From assembly GCF_004353825.1 (NCBI RefSeq), contig NZ_SMNA01000002.1:62001-126000 (forward strand): a stretch of 64,000 nt of DNA. Direction: 5' to 3'. The position numbers and the translations under genes were made by a program. A model generated the notes under the pieces. The model saw nothing but the letters and a program-made list of their open reading frames with translations, ran no database searches and had not been told where the DNA came from. The stretch comes from Occultella glacieicola. GTDB lineage: Bacteria; Actinomycetota; Actinomycetes; Actinomycetales; Beutenbergiaceae. Of this stretch, positions 8,690 through 24,878 are shown in pieces. Each line of letters opens with the position of its first letter. Position 1 is the first letter of the stretch.

Positions 8690-9528
8690 GTCGCCTCCCC
8701 GGAGCCGCCCGCACTGCCCGCGTGCAGGGCCTCCCGGATCGCTGTGACCGCCTCGAAGAACCGGGGGTCCTCCCGCAGGGCGTCGGTGCGCTGGCCGACC
8801 GGACCGAGCCCGGTGGTCACCGTGGTGGTGACCCGGCCGGGTCGCGGCGACATCACGACCACCCGGTCGGACAGGAACGCGGCCTCCGAGATCGAGTGCG
8901 TGACGAACACGACGGCGGCGCCGGTCTCGGCGCTGATCCGGGCCAACTCGGTCTGCATCCGTTCCCGGGTCATCTCGTCCAGGGCACCGAACGGTTCGTC
9001 CATGAGCAGCAGCCGGGGCCGCTCCGCCAGGGCCCGGGCGATCGCGACCCGCTGCTGCATGCCACCGGAGAGCTGGTCGGGGAACCGGGCAGCGAACTCG
9101 CTCAGTCCGACCAGGTCGAGCAGTTCGGCGGAGCGGGTCCGGCGTTCGGACCTGCCCACGCCGTGCAGTTCGAGCGGGAGTTCGACGTTCGCGGCCACGG
9201 TGCGCCAGCCGAGCAGCCCGGCCTGTTGGAACGCGATGCCATAGGCCTGGTCGAGGCGGGCCTGCGGGGCCGACGTCCCGAACACCCGAACCTCCCCCGA
9301 GGTGGGCCGCTCCAGGTCGGCGATGATCCGCAGCAGGGTGCTCTTGCCGCATCCGGAGGGCCCGATCAGGGACACGAACTCACCGGCGGCGACCGCCAGG
9401 TCGATGCCCTCGAGGGCCTGGGTCAGGCCGTCGGAGGTGGTGAAGGTCTTGTCCAGCCCGGCGACGGCGACGGCCGGCACACCTGCGTCGGCCCGCCCGG
9501 GAGGTGCCGTGGTCTCGGTGGTACTCAT
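8686..9528 (-). CDS. ABC transporter ATP-binding protein (NitT/TauT family)
   Basis: GPSGCGKST, LSGGMQQR, LLLMDEPFGALD. Confidence 0.93.
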   Translation of the reverse strand: MSTTETTAPPGRADAGVPAVAVAGLDKTFTTSDGLTQALEGIDLAVAAGEFVSLIGPSGCGKSTLLRIIADLERPTSGEVRVFGTSAPQARLDQAYGIAFQQAGLLGWRTVAANVELPLELHGVGRSERRTRSAELLDLVGLSEFAARFPDQLSGGMQQRVAIARALAERPRLLLMDEPFGALDEMTRERMQTELARISAETGAAVVFVTHSISEAAFLSDRVVVMSPRPGRVTTTVTTGLGPVGQRTDALREDPRFFEAVTAIREALHAGSAGGSGEAT

Positions 9529-10478
9529 GCGGGTTCCTCTCCACGTCGGTAGCGGCGCAGCGCCAGGCCGAGCAGCGCGACAGCGCCGGCGGCGAGCAGA
9601 CCGAGAACGATGGCGCCGAAGATCGGTGCCCAGGACTTCGGCGGGTCCCCGGCCGCCGACTGCGCGAACTCGAGGATCATCCGCCCGATCCCGCCACGCA
9701 GGCCGATGGACACCTCGGCCACGACGGTGCCGATGACGGCGTTCGCGGCAGCCAGGCGCAGGGCGGGCAGCAGATAGGGCACGCTCGCCGGCAGCCGGAG
9801 CCTGATCAGGGTCTGCCACCAGGAGGCCGCGTAGGAGCGGAGCAGGTCGGCGTGGATCGCGTCCGGGGACTTCAGGCCGCGCAGGGCACCGACCGCCACC
9901 GGAAAGAACGCCAGGTAGGACGCGATGACCGCGACCGACATCCAGTTCTCCCAGGAGATCGGTCCGACGGACAGCCGTGAGCCCCAGTTCCGCACGAGCG
10001 GGGCGAGCGCGATCAACGGGACGGTCTGGGACAGCACCACCCAGGGCAGCACCGCCGACTCCGCAGTACGCAGCCGCTGCATCAGCAGGGCCAGGGCCAG
10101 GCCCACGCTCACTCCGATGACCCAGCTCAGCGCGGCCACCCCGAGGCTGAAGGCTGCTGCCTTGGCGGTGGCCACCCAGAGCAGGTCCGCCCCTTCGGCC
10201 CGGGTCACCGGTTCGGTCAGCCGGACGGCCATGTCCCACAGGTGCGGCATCGCGATATCCGTGGTCCGTGGCAGGATCCGCACCCCGGCCACCACCACCC
10301 CGTCGTCCGGGCCGATGAACTTGTAGGCCTCCCATGCCACCCCCACGGCGAAGACCCCGAGCACCCCCATCAGCACCCGCCGCGTCCGGCCGGTCCGCTC
10401 GTGGGGCGGTGTGGTCAGGGCCGCCGCGGGGTCGGCGGTGCGCTCGGCGACCGCGGTCGCCGTCGTGTGCTCGCTCAT
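9525..10478 (-). CDS. ABC transporter permease (NitT/TauT family)
   Basis: TM helices; DLLRSYAASWWQTLIRLRLP. Confidence 0.9.
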   Translation of the reverse strand: MSEHTTATAVAERTADPAAALTTPPHERTGRTRRVLMGVLGVFAVGVAWEAYKFIGPDDGVVVAGVRILPRTTDIAMPHLWDMAVRLTEPVTRAEGADLLWVATAKAAAFSLGVAALSWVIGVSVGLALALLMQRLRTAESAVLPWVVLSQTVPLIALAPLVRNWGSRLSVGPISWENWMSVAVIASYLAFFPVAVGALRGLKSPDAIHADLLRSYAASWWQTLIRLRLPASVPYLLPALRLAAANAVIGTVVAEVSIGLRGGIGRMILEFAQSAAGDPPKSWAPIFGAIVLGLLAAGAVALLGLALRRYRRGEEPA

Positions 10479-10512
10479 CGGCGGGCCCGTCCGCCGATCG
10501 CGACCGGCGGCC

Positions 10513-11535
10513 TCATACGGCGGCGAACCGGTCGATCACGTGCGCGCCGTAGGCCTCCAGGGTGGCGTCGATGGCGTCGTGCTGGAGATAGGCGGCGAAC
10601 TGGTCCACGCCGAGGTCGGCCAGCACCCGGAGCTTGGCGAGGTGCTCCTCCGGGGTGCCGATGATGCAGAACCGTTCCACGATCTCGTCGGGCACGAACG
10701 TGGTGTGGGTGTTCCCGGCCCGGCCGTGCTCGGCGTAGTCGTAACCCTCGCGGCCCTTGATGTAGTCGGTCAGGGCCTGCGGCACGACTCCCGCACTGCC
10801 GTCGCCGTAGCGCGCGACGATGTCGGCGACGTGGTTGCCGACCATCCCCCCGAACCACCGGCACTGCTCCAGCGCATGCGCCCGAGCCTCCGGTCCGCCG
10901 TCGGGCAGCACGTACGCGGGTGCGGCCACGCAGAACGCGATAGCACTCGGATCCCGGCCCACGGCCTCGGCGGCGGCGCGAACGGCGGTGATCATCCACG
11001 AGGCGATCTCCGGGTCGGCCAACTGCAGGATGAACCCGTCCCCCACCTCTCCGGCCAGGGCGAGCGCCTTCGGCCCGTACGCCGCCACCCACACCTCGAG
11101 CTGGGACGACGTGATCCACGGGATCCGCAGCGTCTTCTCGCCCACGGTGGCCTGCCGGCCGTTGGCGAGCTCCCGGATCACGCCGACCGACTCCCGCAGG
11201 CTCGCGAGGGTGGTCGGCCGCCCGCCCTGCACCCGCACGGCCGAGTCCCCCCGCCCGATCCCGCAGATGGTGCGATTGCCGTACATCTCGTTCAGGGTGG
11301 CGAACATCGACGCCAGGACGCTCCAGTCCCGGGTGGCCGGGTTGGTCACCATCGGCCCGACGAGCACCCGCTGCGTGCGGGCGAGCATCGCCGAGTAGAT
11401 GACGAACGGTTCCTCCCACAGCACGTGCGAGTCGAACGTCCACACATGGGAGAACCCGGCCTCCTCCGCGGCCACGGTGAGGTCGACCACGCGCGAGGCG
11501 GGCGGGTTGGTCTGCAGGACGATGCCGAGATCCAT
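10513..11535 (-). CDS. LLM-class probable F420-dependent oxidoreductase (TIGR03842-like)
   Basis: MDLGIVLQTNPP, WTFDSHVLWEEP, GIGRGDSA, AAYGPKAL. Confidence 0.88.
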   Translation of the reverse strand: MDLGIVLQTNPPASRVVDLTVAAEEAGFSHVWTFDSHVLWEEPFVIYSAMLARTQRVLVGPMVTNPATRDWSVLASMFATLNEMYGNRTICGIGRGDSAVRVQGGRPTTLASLRESVGVIRELANGRQATVGEKTLRIPWITSSQLEVWVAAYGPKALALAGEVGDGFILQLADPEIASWMITAVRAAAEAVGRDPSAIAFCVAAPAYVLPDGGPEARAHALEQCRWFGGMVGNHVADIVARYGDGSAGVVPQALTDYIKGREGYDYAEHGRAGNTHTTFVPDEIVERFCIIGTPEEHLAKLRVLADLGVDQFAAYLQHDAIDATLEAYGAHVIDRFAAV

Positions 11536-11551
11536 GTGCGCTCCTTCGCGG

Positions 11552-12973
11552 TCAGATCAGGTACTGGGACAGGCCGCGCTTGATGTACCGGCCGTGTCCC
11601 GCGCGCCCGCGGTACTCACCGTCGTCGACCACCACGGTGCCCCGGGAGAGCACCGTGTCCACGTGACCGTCGATCTCGAAGCCCTCCCATGCGGAGTAGT
11701 CCATGTTCATGTGGTGGGTCTTGCCGAGCCCGATGGACGTGTGCCCGTTCGGGTCGTAGACCACGACGTCCGCGTCGGCACCGGGTTCGATGACTCCCTT
11801 GCGCCCGTACATGCCGAACATCCGCGCCGGGGTGGTGGACGTGATCTCGACCCACCGTTCCAGGCTGAGCCGGCCCTCGACCACGCCCTGGTAGAGCAGG
11901 TCCATCCGGTGCTCCACCGAGCCGATGCCGTTCGGGATCTTCGAGAAGTCCCCGACGCCCATGTCCTTCTGGTCCTTCATGCAGAACGGGCAGTGGTCGG
12001 TGGAGACCATCTGGATGTCGTTCGTGCGCAGGCTCCGCCACATGTGGTCCTGATGGCCCTCGGCCCGGGCCCGCAGCGGCGTGGAGCAGACCCACTTGGC
12101 ACCCTCGAAGCCGGGCGCACCCAACTGCTCCTCGAGCGAGAGGTACAGGTACTGCGGGCAGGTCTCGCCGAAGACGTTCATGCCGCGGTCCCGGGCGGAC
12201 ATGATCTGCTCCACGGCCTGCTTCGCGGACACGTGCACCACATACAGGGGCGCCCCGGTGACGTCGGCGATCATGATCGCCCGGTGGGTGGCCTCCTCCT
12301 CGGCCTGCCAGGGGCGGGAGATCCCGTGGTAGTACGGGTCGGTCTTGCCCTCGGCGATCAGTTGCTGCACGAGCACATCGATCATGGCGCCGTTCTCGGC
12401 GTGCATCATCATCATCGCGCCGTTGTCGGCCCCCTTCTGGAACGCCCGAAGGATCTGGCCGTCGTCGGAGAGGAACACCCCCTTGTAGGCCATGAACAGC
12501 TTGAAACTCGTGACGCCCTCGCTGACGAGCTCGTCCATGGCGCTCAGCGAGGAGTCCTGCACGTCGGAGAGGATCTGATGGAACCCGTAGTCGATGGCGC
12601 AGTTGCCCGCAGCCTTCTCGTGCCAGAGGTGGTACTGGTCCAGGACGTTCTGATCCGGGTACTGGACCACGAAGTCCACGATCGAGGTGGTGCCGCCCCA
12701 GGCCGCGGCCCGGGTGCCGGTCTCGAACGTGTCCGAGGCGAAGGTGCCGCCGAACGGCATCTCCATGTGGGTGTGCGCGTCGATCCCGCCGGGGATGACG
12801 TACTTGCCGCTCGCGTCGATGACGGTGTCCACTGTTGTCCGCAGGTCCGAGCCGAGCACGGTGGAGCCGGGCTCGAGCAGTGCGACGATGCGCTCGCCGT
12901 CGATGAGCACGTCGTACTCGCGGCGACCGGTGCTGGAGACGACGGTGCCTCCGCTGATCAGGGTGGTGGCCAT
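11552..12973 (-). CDS. hydA: Dihydropyrimidinase
   Basis: PGGIDAHTHM, SFKLFMAYKG, HAENG, STDHCPF. Confidence 0.95.
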   Translation of the reverse strand: MATTLISGGTVVSSTGRREYDVLIDGERIVALLEPGSTVLGSDLRTTVDTVIDASGKYVIPGGIDAHTHMEMPFGGTFASDTFETGTRAAAWGGTTSIVDFVVQYPDQNVLDQYHLWHEKAAGNCAIDYGFHQILSDVQDSSLSAMDELVSEGVTSFKLFMAYKGVFLSDDGQILRAFQKGADNGAMMMMHAENGAMIDVLVQQLIAEGKTDPYYHGISRPWQAEEEATHRAIMIADVTGAPLYVVHVSAKQAVEQIMSARDRGMNVFGETCPQYLYLSLEEQLGAPGFEGAKWVCSTPLRARAEGHQDHMWRSLRTNDIQMVSTDHCPFCMKDQKDMGVGDFSKIPNGIGSVEHRMDLLYQGVVEGRLSLERWVEITSTTPARMFGMYGRKGVIEPGADADVVVYDPNGHTSIGLGKTHHMNMDYSAWEGFEIDGHVDTVLSRGTVVVDDGEYRGRAGHGRYIKRGLSQYLI

Positions 12974-13002
12974 GGGGTGCTCCTCTCAGGTCCGGATCCG
13001 GT

Positions 13003-13851
13003 TCAGGGCTTGGGGATCGAGGTGTAGGACTCGGGCCGGCGGTCCCGGTAGAACTGCCAGTCGTTGCGCACCTGGCGGATCAGGTCCAGGTCGAGGTCGC
13101 GGATCACCACCTCCTCGTGCTCGGCGGAGCCGAGGTCCCCGATGTGGTTACCGCGCGGGTCCACGAACTGGCTGGAGCCGTAGAAGGTCACGGCGAGGTC
13201 CCCGTACTCGTTGTCCTCGGTGCCGACCCGGTTCGGGGCGGCCACGAAGTAGCCGTTCGCGGCAGCCGCGGCGGGCTGTTCGATCTCCCAGAGCCGGTTC
13301 GACAGGCCCGGCTTGGTGGCGTTCGGGTTGAACACGATCTGGGCGCCGTTCAGGCCGAGCTCGCGCCAGCCCTCGGGAAAGTGCCGGTCGTAGCAGATGT
13401 AGACCCCGACCGGGCCGACGGCGGTGGCGAACACCGGGTAGCCGAGGTTGCCCGGCCGGAAGTAGAACTTCTCCCAGAACTTGTCGAGGTTCGGGATGTG
13501 GTGCTTGCGGTAGGAGCCGAGGATGGTGCCGTCGGCGTCGACCACGACGGCGGTGTTGTAGTAGACGCCGGGCTGCTCCTCCTCGTAGATGGGCAGGATC
13601 ATCACCAGGGCGAGTTCCTTGGCGAGGGCGGCGAAGCGCTGCACGATCGGCCCGTCCGCCGGCTCGGCGTAGGCGTAGTACTTGGGATCCTCGGTGATGC
13701 CGAAGTACGGGCCGTAGAACAGCTCCTGGAAGCAGATGATCTGCGCCCCCTGTTCCTTCGCGTCCCGGGCGAACTGCTCGTGCTTGGCGACCATCGACTC
13801 CTTGTCACCGGTCCAGGTCGTCTGCGTGATCGCAGCGCGTACGACGGTCAT
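13003..13851 (-). CDS. Nitrilase-family C-N hydrolase, probable beta-ureidopropionase
   Basis: CFQELF, YRKHHIP, ICYDRHFPE (E-K-C triad); adjacent to hydA. Confidence 0.9.
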   Translation of the reverse strand: MTVVRAAITQTTWTGDKESMVAKHEQFARDAKEQGAQIICFQELFYGPYFGITEDPKYYAYAEPADGPIVQRFAALAKELALVMILPIYEEEQPGVYYNTAVVVDADGTILGSYRKHHIPNLDKFWEKFYFRPGNLGYPVFATAVGPVGVYICYDRHFPEGWRELGLNGAQIVFNPNATKPGLSNRLWEIEQPAAAAANGYFVAAPNRVGTEDNEYGDLAVTFYGSSQFVDPRGNHIGDLGSAEHEEVVIRDLDLDLIRQVRNDWQFYRDRRPESYTSIPKP

Positions 13852-17910: not shown

Positions 17911-17932
17911 CCGTTGTAGGGTGGGAGACCAC

Positions 17933-17989
17933 GGACACCGGGGCTGACTGTGCCCCGAGTTTGACCGGCCCGATCTGGCCGGCGGGTCC
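17933..17989 (+). ncRNA. Candidate structured 5' leader (three-way junction)
   Basis: GGAC/GTCC closing stem around two 6-bp hairpins, just downstream of a TAGGGT -10 (17917-17922). Confidence 0.4.
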
Positions 17990-18030
17990 TTTGCGCATCC
18001 CCGAGATCCCACCCGCGCTGGAGCCTGCCC

Positions 18031-19056
18031 ATGTCCCATGCTCGTCCCGTCGCCGCGCGCCCGGCCGCGGCGTTGCCCCTCGTCCTCGCCCTGGCCGCCT
18101 GCTCGGGCGGCGCCGCACCGGACCCGCCCGGCGCCGTGCCGCAGGAGTCGACCGTTCAGGCCGAGGTCGGGTACCCGGTGACCGTCGACAACTGCGGCAC
18201 GGAGGTGTCGCTGGAGGCGCCACCGGAACGCATCGTCACCATCAAGTCGGCCCCGACGGAGATGGTCCTGGCGCTCGGCCTCGGCGACCGGCTCGTCGGG
18301 ACCGCGTTCGCCGACGGTCCGCTCCCGGACGACCTGGCCGACGCCGGAGCCGACGTTCCCGTGCTCGCCGAGCAGGCGCCGTCGTCGGAGGTGGTGCTGT
18401 CCACCGAACCGGACCTGGTCTACGCGGGCTGGGAATCGAACCTGAGCGCCGAGACGGCCGGCGACCGGACCGCACTGGCCGACCTGGGCGTGGCCACCTA
18501 TGTGAGTCCTGCGGCGTGCCTCGAGGAGGGCTACCAACCGGACCCACTCACATTCGACGGCGTGTTCGCCGACATCATCGAGGCCGGGGACCTGCTCGGG
18601 GCCCCCGACGCGGCCGCGGACCTGGTGGCCGCACAGCAGGAGGAGCTGGCGGCCGTGGCGCCGTCGGACTCCGGGCTGAGTGCGCTCTGGTACTCCTCGG
18701 GCTCGGACACCCCGTACGTCGGAGCCGGGATCGGCGCGCCCCAGATGCTGATGGACGCGATCGGCGTGGAGAACATCGCCGCGGACATCGACGACTCGTG
18801 GTCCTCGCTGTCCTGGGAGGCGATCGCCGACGCCGAGCCGGACCTGATCATCCTGGTCGACTCCGCCTGGAACACGGCCGAGTACAAGATCGGCCAGCTG
18901 GAGGCGAACCCGACCACCGCGGCGCTGCCCGCGGTGCAGGAGGGGCGGTACCTGATCGTGGACTTCCCCGCCACCGAGGCCGGGGTGCGCAGCGTCCCGG
19001 CCGCGACCGAGCTCGCCGACCAGCTGGCGCAGCTGGAGTCGGGACCCGGCTCATGA
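18031..19056 (+). CDS. Putative F420-0 ABC transporter substrate-binding lipoprotein (BtuF/FepB fold)
   Basis: Lipobox LAAC; VDNCG, RIVTIKS, VYAGWESN, TPYVGAGIGAP, FPATEAGVR recall the TIGR03868 family; cofE nearby. Confidence 0.8.
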   Translation: MSHARPVAARPAAALPLVLALAACSGGAAPDPPGAVPQESTVQAEVGYPVTVDNCGTEVSLEAPPERIVTIKSAPTEMVLALGLGDRLVGTAFADGPLPDDLADAGADVPVLAEQAPSSEVVLSTEPDLVYAGWESNLSAETAGDRTALADLGVATYVSPAACLEEGYQPDPLTFDGVFADIIEAGDLLGAPDAAADLVAAQQEELAAVAPSDSGLSALWYSSGSDTPYVGAGIGAPQMLMDAIGVENIAADIDDSWSSLSWEAIADAEPDLIILVDSAWNTAEYKIGQLEANPTTAALPAVQEGRYLIVDFPATEAGVRSVPAATELADQLAQLESGPGS

Positions 19057-20237
19057 CCCGGCTCGACGTCGAGGCGGCTCGGGCGCCGCAGGAGCTCCGT
19101 TCGGGTGCGCCGTCCGCTCGACCGGCCGGCGCGACCTCCGCGGCCGCCGGACCCGACCCTGCGGTACCCCGGCCGGGCCCCGGGGCCACGCCCCGGCGGC
19201 CCGGCCGGATCCTGCTCTGGCTGCCGGCCGCGATCGCGGTCCTGGTCGTCTCCCTCCTGGTGTCGTTGACGATCGGTCCGGCGCAGATCACCGTCGCCGA
19301 GATCGTCGGGTCCGCATGGCACCACGTCCTGGCCTGGCTGCACGGTCTCGGGCTCGGCGTGGACGTGCCGCCCAACCCACTCACCGAGATCCGTGACGCG
19401 ATCATCTGGTCCGGCCGCGCACCCCGGCTCGCCACCGGCGCGTTCGTGGGTGCCGGGCTCGCCCTGTGCGGCGGGGTGATGCAGGCGATCACCCGCAATC
19501 CGCTCGCGGACCCGTACCTGCTGGGGGTGTCCTCCGGCGCCGCCCTCGGCGCGGTCGCGGTGCTGCTCCTCGGACTCGGTCTGGCCCTGCCCGTCGCGGC
19601 CTTCGGTGGGGCGCTGCTCGCCCTCGGCGCCACCCTCGCCCTGGCCGGGCTCGGCGGGCGGCTCAGCCCGAACCGGACCGTGCTGGCCGGGATCGCGGTG
19701 GCCCAGGCCTGCTCGGCACTCGTGTCCTTCACGATCTTCGCCGGCGCCCGCGGCGACGCCTACCGGGAGATCATCAACTGGCTGATGGGGTCACTGGCGG
19801 GCCGGACCTGGGCCTCCGTCGCGATCGCCGGGATCGCGACCGTCGTGATCGGCGTCGTGCTGCTCGGGTTCGGGCGCACGCTGGATGCGTTCGCGTTCGG
19901 GGACACGTCCGCCGCCTCCCTCGGCGTGCACGTGGTGCGGACCCGGTGGGTGCTGCTGACGCTCACGGCACTGCTCACCGGCGCCCTGGTCAGCGTCAGC
20001 GGAGCGATCGGTTTCGTCGGGCTCGTCCTGCCGCACGTGGTCCGGCTCCTGATCGGTGGGCGACACCTCCGCCTGCTCCCGGTCGCGGCGTTCGGCGGGG
20101 CCACGTTCCTGATCTGGGCCGACACCGCGGCACGGACCGTGTTCGCACCCCAGGAGGTCCCGGTCGGCATCCTCACCGCCGCGATCGGTGCCCCGGTGTT
20201 CGCGTGGCTGCTGGTCCGCTCGAGGAGGACCGCATGA
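19053..20237 (+). CDS. Putative F420-0 ABC transporter permease (FecCD family)
   Basis: MQAITRNPLADPYLLGVSSGA; GAIGFVGLVLPH. Confidence 0.85.
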   Translation: MTRLDVEAARAPQELRSGAPSARPAGATSAAAGPDPAVPRPGPGATPRRPGRILLWLPAAIAVLVVSLLVSLTIGPAQITVAEIVGSAWHHVLAWLHGLGLGVDVPPNPLTEIRDAIIWSGRAPRLATGAFVGAGLALCGGVMQAITRNPLADPYLLGVSSGAALGAVAVLLLGLGLALPVAAFGGALLALGATLALAGLGGRLSPNRTVLAGIAVAQACSALVSFTIFAGARGDAYREIINWLMGSLAGRTWASVAIAGIATVVIGVVLLGFGRTLDAFAFGDTSAASLGVHVVRTRWVLLTLTALLTGALVSVSGAIGFVGLVLPHVVRLLIGGRHLRLLPVAAFGGATFLIWADTAARTVFAPQEVPVGILTAAIGAPVFAWLLVRSRRTA

Positions 20238-21091
20238 GCGGCGCACCGGACGCGACGGTGACCGTCGCGGACCTGTGGGCGAGCGAGTTGCGGTACCGGA
20301 TCAACGCGGCCGAGATCCTCGGCGGCGTGGACGTGAGCGTGCGCGCCGGGCAGATCACCGGGGTGCTCGGGCCGAACGGCTCCGGGAAGTCGACGCTGCT
20401 GCGGCTGATCGTGGGCGCCCTGGTGCCCTCGAGCGGTCACGTGCACCTGCTCGGCCGGGACGTGGCCCGGGTGGGCCGGCGCGAGCGGGCCCGCCAGGTG
20501 GCATTCGTCGAGCAGGAGGCGCACGCCGAGGTGGACCTACCGGTCCGGGACGTGGTGCTCCTCGGCCGGACCCCCCACCGGCCGGTGTTCTCCGGCGACA
20601 GTGCCACGGACCTGGACCTGGTCGAGTCCACGCTCCGACGCGCGGGTGCGCTGGAGCTGGCGGACCGGGCCTACGCGACGCTGTCCGGTGGGGAGAAGCA
20701 GCGGGTCCAGATGGCCCGGGCCCTGGCCCAGACACCGCGGGTGCTCCTCCTCGACGAACCGACGAACCACCTCGATGTCGCCGCCCAGCTGCAGGCACTG
20801 ACGCTGGTCCGGGAGGTGGCCGCCGCCGGCACCGGCGTACTGATGGCCATCCATGACCTCGCCCACGCCGCCGCGGTCTGCGACGACGTCCTGGTACTGC
20901 ACGAGGGCCTGGTGGTCGCCGCCGGGCCCCCGCGGGAGGTGCTCACCCCCGGGCTCATCGCCGCCGTGTACGGCGTGCACGCCGAATGGGTCGACGGCGA
21001 ACACGGGGCCGCTCTGGTGTTCTCACCACTGCGCGGCGAGGGTACGGCTCACCACCATCGGGCGATGCTGGCGGAGTCCTTGCGACGGTAG
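20234..21091 (+). CDS. ABC transporter ATP-binding protein (FecE-like)
   Basis: GPNGSGKST, LSGGEKQR, LLDEPTNHLD. Confidence 0.9.
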   Translation: MSGAPDATVTVADLWASELRYRINAAEILGGVDVSVRAGQITGVLGPNGSGKSTLLRLIVGALVPSSGHVHLLGRDVARVGRRERARQVAFVEQEAHAEVDLPVRDVVLLGRTPHRPVFSGDSATDLDLVESTLRRAGALELADRAYATLSGGEKQRVQMARALAQTPRVLLLDEPTNHLDVAAQLQALTLVREVAAAGTGVLMAIHDLAHAAAVCDDVLVLHEGLVVAAGPPREVLTPGLIAAVYGVHAEWVDGEHGAALVFSPLRGEGTAHHHRAMLAESLRR

Positions 21092-23016: not shown

Positions 23017-23751
23017 TCAGTTGCCGGTGCGGAACATGTCCTCCTCGGGCGGGCGGATCGCGACGGCGGCGCCGTCACCGTCCTCCTGGGTGACCAGGTG
23101 CCCGAGGCCGCGGACCACGGCGAACGGGCGTCCCTTCGCCTTGCCGCGGACCAGGTCCGCGGCCCCGGCGATCTCGTCGGCGACGGCGATCACGCTGGCC
23201 CGCAGGTCCCGGCCCTGCATGTCCTGCTGGCCGCGCAGGTCCTCCAGCACGTTCAGGCCGGCCGCGCCGATCGAGATGTCGGCGATGCCGCGCCGCCACG
23301 GGCGACCCACGGTGTCGGTGACCAGCACCCCGGGCCGAACCCCGAGCCGGGCGTTCAGGCCGCGCCGGATCCGGCGGGCTGAGGCGTCCGGGTCCTCCGG
23401 CAACAGCAGCACGGTACCGGGCAGCACGTTCGAGGCGTCCACCCCGGCGGCGGCCATCACCAGGCCCTGCTTGTTCTCCACGATCCGTAGCGTGGACCCG
23501 TCCGGGTACTCGCGGGTGGCCACCACCCGCACCGTCTCGGCGGTGATCGCGGCCTCGCGGTCCTTGCCGGCCACCAGGCGGCCCTCCGCCTTGGCGACGA
23601 TCTTGGAGGCGATCACGATGATGTCCCCCTCGGCCGGCCCGGTCGAGCCGTCGGGCCAGGTCAGGGCGGCGAGCAGCGGGGTGAGCAAGGCGGCCAGGTC
23701 CGTTCCGGACGTGACCTCACCGACGCCGTCGGGCGCTTGGACGAGCAGCAT
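23017..23751 (-). CDS. cofE: Coenzyme F420-0:L-glutamate ligase
   Basis: [50 protein letters not shown]. Confidence 0.93.
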
Positions 23752-24750
23752 TCAGCGGACCACCTTGGGCAGGACGTCGCGGCCGAAGGTCTCGATCCAT
23801 TCGGTCTGGTTCCGGCCGACGTTGTGCAGATAGATACGGTCGAATCCTAGGTCCGCGTAGGCCTGGATCGCACGCAGGTGCACCTCCGGGTCCGCGGAGA
23901 CCACCATCCGGCCCTCGAAGTCCTCCGGTCGCACCATCTTCGCGACCTGGGCGAACTCGAACGGTGAGCGGATGTCCGCCTTCGGGAACCGCATCGCCCC
24001 GTTCGGCCACTGGGTCATCGCGTTCGCGAGGGCCACCTCGTCGGTCTCGGCCCAGGACAGGTGCAGCCGGACCACCTTCGTCATCGACGCCGGATCCCGG
24101 CCGGCCTCCTTCGCGCCGGCGGCGAACCGCGCGAGCAGGGTAGCCACCTTGTCCACCGGTGCACCGATCGTGATCAGGCCGTCCGCATGCTTTCCGGCGC
24201 GGCGCGCGGTCACCGGCCCACCCGCGGCGATCAGGATCTCCGGCGCGACCTCGGGCATGGTCCACAGCCGGGTCGACTCGAGTTTGAAGAACTCGCCGGA
24301 ATGCTTGTAGTCCCGGCCGGCCAGTGAGTTCGAGAACAGCCGCGCGATGAGGTCCACGGCCTCGAACATCCGGTTGATCCGCTCCGGCGCCTCCGGCCAG
24401 TAGCCACCGACGATGTGCTCGTTGATCGCCTCCCCGGAGCCGATGCCGAGCCAGTGCCGACCCGGGTACATCGCCGCCAGCGTCGCGCTCGCCTGCGCCA
24501 CCATCGCCGGATGCCACCGGAACGTCGGCGCACTCACGCCGGGACCGAGGTCCCCGGCGGTCCGCTCCCCCAGCGCCGCCAGCACGTTCCAGACGAACGA
24601 CGCCTGCCCCTGCGCCGGCACCCACGGCTGGTAGTGGTCGGCCGCCATCACCCCGGAGAACCCGTGTGCCTCCGCCTGTGTGGCGTAGGAGAGCACCTCC
24701 CTCGGGTGGAACTGCTCGAGCATCGCCGCGTAGCCGATGGTCAACGTCAT
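23752..24750 (-). CDS. F420-dependent LLM oxidoreductase, G6PDH family (TIGR03557-like)
   Basis: GYAAMLEQFHP, ADHYQPW, GSGEAINEH. Confidence 0.88.
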   Translation of the reverse strand: MTLTIGYAAMLEQFHPREVLSYATQAEAHGFSGVMAADHYQPWVPAQGQASFVWNVLAALGERTAGDLGPGVSAPTFRWHPAMVAQASATLAAMYPGRHWLGIGSGEAINEHIVGGYWPEAPERINRMFEAVDLIARLFSNSLAGRDYKHSGEFFKLESTRLWTMPEVAPEILIAAGGPVTARRAGKHADGLITIGAPVDKVATLLARFAAGAKEAGRDPASMTKVVRLHLSWAETDEVALANAMTQWPNGAMRFPKADIRSPFEFAQVAKMVRPEDFEGRMVVSADPEVHLRAIQAYADLGFDRIYLHNVGRNQTEWIETFGRDVLPKVVR

Positions 24751-24781
24751 GGACGCGAGCCTAATGGGCACACCGGGACGC

Positions 24782-24800
24782 TTATCGGGAATGCTTCTCA
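24782..24800 (+). promoter_or_regulatory. Zur-like operator upstream of rpmG
   Basis: TTATCGGGAATGCTTCTCA matches 14/19 positions of the actinobacterial Zur consensus as I recall it (TTATTGAAAATGATTTTCA). Confidence 0.55.
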
Positions 24801-24878
24801 CCCGAGAGTGGTTGTTCGTGGTGCCGGCGGATCGCCGGCTCAGTGGTGCGGTGAGACCGCGCAGAAGGAGAAGTGTCG

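Follow-up and report, generated by a model that had tools for sequence, protein, structure and literature searches.

A conserved three-way-junction RNA at the head of putative deazaflavin importer mRNAs in actinobacteria lacking FO synthase

Does the leader of a putative F420-0 importer operon in Occultella glacieicola contain a functional RNA, and to which signal might such an RNA respond? The operon lies in a 64,000-nucleotide stretch of contig NZ_SMNA01000002.1 (assembly GCF_004353825.1, positions 62,001 to 126,000), referred to below as the window, and all coordinates are given in window numbering. A first-pass annotation had placed a riboswitch-like three-way junction resembling the purine riboswitch ahead of the importer genes, and had suggested that it might sense a deazaflavin.

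The operon is encoded on the forward strand and comprises genes for a substrate-binding lipoprotein of a putative F420-0 (FO/F420-0) ABC importer (18031..19056; 459.9 bits against TIGR03868, cut-off 392.4 bits; PF01497), a permease (19053..20237; above the TIGR03869 cut-off), and an ATPase (20234..21091) whose best match, TIGR03873, is under its cut-off. Two of the three components of the cassette in the window are over their family cut-offs, and the operon can be assigned to the putative F420-0 transporter TIGR03868/TIGR03869/TIGR03873, with FO a likely cargo besides F420-0; TIGR03868 is itself a hypothetical equivalog, and the cargo is accordingly putative. A solved close relative of the binding protein, PDB 4MLZ (E 1e-96), is titled only 'periplasmic binding protein'. 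The reverse strand carries cofE, encoding F420-0:glutamate ligase (23017..23751; TIGR01916 above cut-off), with no motif 5' of the gene, and a gene for an F420-dependent LLM oxidoreductase of the TIGR03557 family (23752..24801).

All parts of the leader were found where the first-pass annotation had placed them: TAGGGT at 17917-17922, GGAC at 17933-17936, the hairpins P2 and P3, AGTTTGA between them, and GTCC at 17986-17989. The TAGGGT sequence is a -10 box of the TANNNT type, which fails a strict sigma-70 scan; transcription would start about 6-8 nt downstream of it, so that the 5' strand of P1 (GGAC) lies at or just past the predicted first base of the transcript. Hairpin P2 (17939..17957) has a loop at 17945-17951 ending in a conserved U (17951), and hairpin P3 (17965..17982) a loop at 17971-17976 ending in an invariant U (17976); in both a closing G follows. 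The junction J2/3 between them (AGTTTGA, 17958..17964) is not conserved in sequence among relatives, where it is usually 4 nt long with G at position 2. Beyond the 3' strand of P1 (GTCC with its flank, 17981..17989) the leader continues through a C-rich spacer (17990..18019; 14 C and 6 G within its 30 nt), which may be a Rho-loading or ribosome standby site, to a Shine-Dalgarno-like GGAG (18020..18023) 7 nt 5' of the ATG at 18031. The 57-nt motif on the forward strand (17933..17989) scores 40.1 bits and is the sole strong model match in the window, its own row being among the model seeds. No credible second copy was seen in the window's own genome, where 150 of about 16,000 candidates were scored.

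Folding energies distinguish the core from its surroundings. The 114-nt span originally noted is not unusually stable relative to shuffled sequences (z -0.82; 43 of 200 shuffles as good), and its minimum-energy fold does not contain P1. The 57-nt core (17933-17989) alone folds into the three-way junction, with z -2.33 and 4 of 200 shuffles as good.

Relatives were drawn from the best 80 of 305 related loci, two of which end before the leader. In nearly all of the others a parser recovered the same layout: a TANNNT box, 5-10 nt, P1, P2, a short junction, P3 and P1. Because the parser demanded the box and favoured pairs, tests independent of it weigh more. A plain MAFFT alignment with 59 leaders has 81.7% of its cells paired and two-sided changes in 17 of the 19 pairs; RNAalifold recovered P2 and P3 from this alignment, and not P1. 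In an unfitted MAFFT alignment of 86 leaders (from 122 parsed rows, of which 26 were removed as poorly parsed and the remainder as duplicates), 84.8% of cells are paired versus 70.2% in shuffles (0 of 500 as high) and at most 52.7% in a partner-slid control. Conservation and covariation in orthologous leaders, the decisive check proposed in the first-pass annotation, are both present there, with two-sided changes in 18 of 19 pairs. Paired cells amount to 70% in P1, 93.7% in P2 and 86% in P3, P1 being the weakest helix in part owing to alignment register shifts. The top five position pairs by mutual information are all predicted pairs, and within the inner stems G-U pairs outnumber A-C mismatches by 114 to 18, which points to RNA of the sense strand. 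The covariance model R1 matches the leader in 77 of the 80 loci, 58 of them model seeds, and in 22 of 28 newly fetched loci of family f5 at E < 0.05, including at least one repeat of a seed. The alignments and model matches thus bear out a conserved, covarying three-way junction at the head of the importer mRNA, and the 57-nt element is almost certainly a real conserved RNA.

The family is compact. P1 has 4-5 bp and starts approximately at the predicted first base; P2 and P3 are hairpins of 6-7 bp, their loops mostly measuring 6-7 nt. J1/2 measures 0-2 nt, J2/3 mostly 4 nt (57 of 102 leaders) and J3/1 mostly 1-2 nt, and in 71 of 102 leaders the distance from the -10 box to P2 is 11-12 nt. A Y-G closing pair follows the loop-terminal U in 93/102 and 98/102 leaders for the two hairpins, and in both hairpins together in 88/102. 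These loop-terminal uridines are the only two unpaired positions conserved at 90% or more; three G positions are conserved at 76-80%, and no junction base reaches 90%. In one leader, L241, the P2 and P3 loops differ by a single base, and L012:848-950 has a second copy of P2, so that three similar hairpins stand ahead of the P1 3' strand. In L016, L019, L020, L024, L025 and their kin P1 is directly followed by a fourth hairpin that is lineage-wide and has an AGAUGR loop; fourth hairpins differ in other lineages, and none is strong in the window. A general test for a fourth hairpin was uninformative (98 of 111 native sequences vs 82% of shuffles).

The likeness to the purine riboswitch that was originally remarked on holds for topology only. 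Like that riboswitch (RF00167), the motif is a three-way junction with 6-7 bp arms and 6-7 nt loops at the head of a transporter mRNA. The purine riboswitch has highly conserved joining strands J1/2, J2/3 and J3/1 and an L2-L3 contact with two central G-C pairs, according to the part of the source seen (PMC6847200), whereas in the present motif J2/3 is mostly 4 nt, the joining strands vary and the context is one of deazaflavin salvage. The AGUUU junction, taken as a purine-like signature, occurs in the window alone among 102 distinct leaders, and even the closest relative, L001, has another junction. The remark that the loops lack the canonical kissing nucleotides was correct: L2 ends in GG in 0/102 leaders and L3 starts with CC in 3/102, no L2/L3 pairing was found, and the complementarity of the loops is no better than that of permuted ones. 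With variable joining strands, no L2-L3 contact and no RF00167 match anywhere in the genome, a purine riboswitch was rejected. No other Rfam family reached its gathering score in the window either, and a relaxed search of the region and 20 related leaders gave chance matches only.

Guanidine-II (mini-ykkC) riboswitches have ACGR tetraloops. The motif shares with them two look-alike hairpins ahead of a transporter and differs in its variable loop length and in P1, which closes the hairpins; no ACGR tetraloop occurs in the 102 leaders, and this class was rejected as well.

The distribution of the motif is narrow. Besides family f5 it is present in families f14 and f44, which belong to other orders. 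In 25 unseeded f5/f14 genomes the best genome-wide match of model R2 lies directly 5' of the importer in 11, the coarse search having given none, or a chance match first, in the remaining 14; direct scans added four further unseeded leaders (L138, L092, L141 and a degenerate L009). Among transporter-linked model matches 11 of 11 (one of them repeating a seed) have a TANNNT box 5' of them, versus 1 of 36 other matches, which were judged to be chance by eye or script; the model used for this comparison contains no promoter. In overlapping class, order and phylum samples (150, 150, 150 and 80 genomes) every box-bearing match but one precedes TIGR03868-like or EamA genes, although these searches scored only 37-70 candidates per genome and overlooked even some seed leaders, so that rare contexts can escape. 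The fbiC, cofD, cofC and cofE loci tested gave no significant model match. The importer itself (TIGR03868 above cut-off) occurs in 16 of 301 genomes of the class sample, in 1 of 151 of the f44 sample and in 46 of 151 of the f5 sample, which marks about a third of the sampled f5 genomes as probable deazaflavin scavengers. One genome, G583, has a second importer paralogue with a motif of its own (L202:857-2015), divergent from cofD.

The metabolism of the hosts bears on the cargo. A match for cofH/fbiC (FO synthase) is absent in 78 of the 80 carrier genomes, and cofD is above cut-off in 59 of them; cofE is present in all 10 genomes tested, including five carriers without cofD, and cofC in 4 of 5 tested. 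The window's own genome is without cofH and has cofD, cofC and cofE. In f5, 26 of the 33 genomes having cofD encode it within 3 kb of the importer on the same strand. The absence of cofH together with the retention of cofD in most genomes suggests that the carriers salvage FO or F420-0. Judged by gene content, they would use F420 and be unable to make its core; FO could serve as the starting point where cofD is present, and F420-0 or a later form would be needed where it is absent. The designation as an F420-0 importer therefore stands as regards the binding protein and permease families, and is refined by the 59 of 80 genomes with cofD, which make FO at least as likely a cargo. The gene context of the leader thus points to deazaflavins. 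As RNA of the sense strand, the conserved structure stands at the extreme 5' end of the mRNA and is confined to importers in actinobacteria without FO synthase.

Related importers are preceded by a different RNA. Cobalamin riboswitches (RF00174, gathering score) occur at 11 of 13 paralogues below the TIGR03868 cut-off, versus none of seven importer loci above it and none in the window, and conversely the motif was found at 0 of 14 leaders of below-cut-off sister importers. In a quick, unrooted tree of 46 proteins a branch with 100% support separates the 32 motif-bearing rows from the rest. The sister binding proteins under cobalamin riboswitches (L103-L112, L114 and L116) are probably B12 importers; in L107 two such riboswitches stand back to back. 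The motif and the cobalamin riboswitch share their position before a related class of binding proteins and a setting of cofactor salvage, and differ in size (about 57 vs about 190 nt), with no match either way.

A second gene context was found in genus g3. In G040 the motif and its box precede a gene for an EamA-family transporter, unrelated to the ABC importer; this genome is without TIGR03868 and cofH and has cofD, cofC and cofE. In G602 of the same genus (88% complete), the EamA gene and the motif are again present, with no cofH match and without TIGR03868, and G601, also of this genus, has cofH and no such EamA; the EamA context thus comprises three genomes of one genus. The motif is absent at 13 more distant EamA homologues and at three others. 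Promoter capture could account for the transfer of the motif to the EamA gene; the structure has nonetheless been kept. In G142, which lacks cofH, GntR-like, fgd-like and EamA-homologue genes (named by eye) stand in one run (L217 / L283:1381-3268 and downstream), the EamA homologue directly after the fgd-like gene and without the RNA motif. This gene run in a genome without cofH supports a link of the EamA group to F420. If the motif is a deazaflavin riboswitch, the EamA protein would be a second, unrelated FO importer.

How the motif might act on the operon was considered in 92 full leaders (another 26 rows were set aside as duplicates or for want of a clear GGAG start). The probability of P1 exceeds 0.5 in 12 of the 92, a marginal stability that is expected for a switch helix. 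When P1 was forced or forbidden, the accessibility of the Shine-Dalgarno sequence shifted upward in 12 leaders and downward in 13, giving no common direction. The P1 3' strand can pair with the Shine-Dalgarno region in the window (duplex -15.5 kcal/mol), L001 and L102, an alternative that is not family-wide; in f14 leaders a segment past a fourth hairpin can pair with this region. Native P1-to-Shine-Dalgarno pairing is only slightly above that of cross pairs (p 0.011), one of two untranscribed controls being near-equal (p 0.017), and kinship confounds the covariation test of this pairing. The 30 nt leading up to the Shine-Dalgarno sequence have a C skew of 0.37, versus 0.05 in 879 control genes taken from the window genome only, about 10% of which reach the skew of the leaders; such a spacer is compatible with Rho loading and is not proof of it. 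No intrinsic terminator was found 3' of the motif in the window, and no expression platform common to the family emerged.

The preferred reading is a leader that responds to deazaflavins, either by binding them directly or by way of a protein. Of the two, we tentatively favour the former, with the motif as a sensor domain in a cis-acting RNA switch that couples the uptake of deazaflavins to F420 supply. P2 and P3 would fold during transcription, and F420 or FO would then bind a compact fold, maintained by the loop U-G steps together with the two arms of fixed length, and would lock P1. In the locked form expression of the operon would be reduced, most likely because the C-rich spacer stays accessible to Rho or because the ribosome-binding site changes its pairing partner; the OFF direction is suggested by the precedent of cofactor importers. 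Covariation, rigid geometry, the absence of cofH, the cobalamin riboswitches of the sister importers, the EamA context, the marginal P1 and the C skew are counted in favour of direct sensing. Counted against it are the two conserved unpaired bases, which are thin for a ligand pocket, the lack of a common shift in Shine-Dalgarno accessibility, of a terminator, and of the motif at the biosynthesis loci tested, as well as the restriction of the EamA case to one genus and of the C-skew control to one genome. As in riboswitches, a conserved and covarying 5'-leader structure stands at functionally linked genes; the many highly conserved unpaired nucleotides of a pocket are represented here by two positions at 90% or more and three at 76-80%.

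The thinness of the conserved bases would be less of a difficulty for a protein reader, since few such bases suffice for a protein. A dimeric, F420-sensing RNA-binding protein, for which CofE and other F420-binding proteins are candidates, might read the two similar loops, the junction being held shut and the ribosome-binding site freed when the cofactor is scarce. We consider this only slightly less likely than direct sensing, noting that both hairpins share the Y-G closure after the loop-terminal U in 88/102 leaders, that the near-identity of the L241 loops and the duplicated P2 of L012 fit such a reader, that the P1 3' strand can reach the Shine-Dalgarno region in the three leaders named above, and that no genome tested lacked cofE. 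We know of no RNA binding by CofE, and no regulator is common beside the 80 loci (a MarR-like gene, named by eye, occurs in 8, in a noisy clustering of open reading frames). ANTAR target RNAs have two hexaloops with A1 and G4, as given in the part of the source seen (PMC8164766). Like these targets, the motif has two similar hairpins, mostly with loops of six bases, in leaders of actinobacteria; it differs in its closing P1, its 7-bp stems and its location at the transcript start rather than over the ribosome-binding site. The A1/G4 rule fails in all 92 hexaloops (0/44 in L2 and 0/48 in L3), and an ANTAR target was rejected.

It is unlikely that the motif is a constitutive 5' structure that senses nothing and merely buries the first bases in P1, stabilising the mRNA or setting a pause. 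The start of P1 near the predicted first base, the few conserved unpaired bases and the lack of a common platform would agree with such a role, yet fixed arms, two loop uridines and retention at an unrelated transporter exceed what stability needs, and the structure occurs as one copy per genome and at no other genes.

It appears improbable that the switch responds to some different signal accompanying the use of F420 (a metal ion, the redox state, FMN or riboflavin), or that the transporter carries something other than a deazaflavin. TIGR03868 is a hypothetical equivalog whose nearest relatives are under cobalamin riboswitches, and EamA-type riboflavin importers exist (RibN belongs to EamA), which provides a precedent for this alternative. 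It is opposed by the same-strand cofD within 3 kb in 26 of 33 f5 genomes having cofD, by the near-complete absence of cofH, and by the lack of an FMN or cobalamin model match. The FMN riboswitch precedes the riboflavin importers ribM, ribN and ribU, according to the part of the source seen (PMC4418817). Like it, the present motif is one RNA element that marks unrelated importers of a flavin-like cofactor precursor; it differs in having no sequence or model match to the FMN element, which also occurs at biosynthesis genes, unlike the motif at the loci tested. Finally, two DNA palindromes bound by a repressor just 3' of the promoter, as the fixed distance from the -10 box and the two similar inverted repeats might suggest, are very improbable, because the arms vary freely with pairs kept (G-U 114 vs A-C 18), spacer length varies between 4 and 10 nt, the conserved U-G step is not mirrored, and P1 closes both hairpins.

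The sequence comparisons support a cis-RNA family tied to deazaflavin import, which is not a purine variant and has no earlier description in Rfam or the searched literature, and for which ligand sensing is plausible. Neither Rfam 15 nor the searched literature, seen in part, contains an RNA sensor for F420 or FO, although unnamed motifs in survey supplements, such as the 224 motifs of PMC5737381, could include the leader; the main text of RNA-motif surveys, as far as seen, does not mention F420. The parts seen of PMC8498797 do not mention a riboswitch or uptake, those of PMC12855090 mention only the FMN riboswitch, and the searched literature, likewise seen in part, holds no demonstration of F420 uptake. 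It is conceivable, at somewhat less than even chances, that the motif is the first deazaflavin (FO or F420) riboswitch class, a minimal 57-nt junction with few fixed bases that replaced a cobalamin riboswitch when a B12-type importer changed its cargo, and that it now flags EamA as an FO importer too.

For direct tests of binding the motif offers a construct that is short and aligns well, and its second context nominates EamA as a new importer family. If it is a true F420 sensor, F420 levels in engineered strains could be monitored with it; were a protein to read the motif instead, F420 metabolism would have a new RNA-binding regulator.

Two further observations concern the surroundings of the leaders. 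A DNA box of GGATCCAG-like repeats lies about 25-50 nt 5' of the importer -10 box in L004, L010-L013, L022, L026, L087 and L090; such a box is found in L231 too, before an fgd-like gene and cofE, and a similar one in L093-L101. The box may serve as an operator, either for an F420 regulon or for the divergent operon. On the reverse strand of the window (9525-13851) there is a pyrimidine-degradation-like cluster of nitrilase-like, dihydropyrimidinase-like and ABC genes (named by eye), which also holds a TIGR03842 F420-dependent LLM enzyme above cut-off, and similar genes occur near several related loci.
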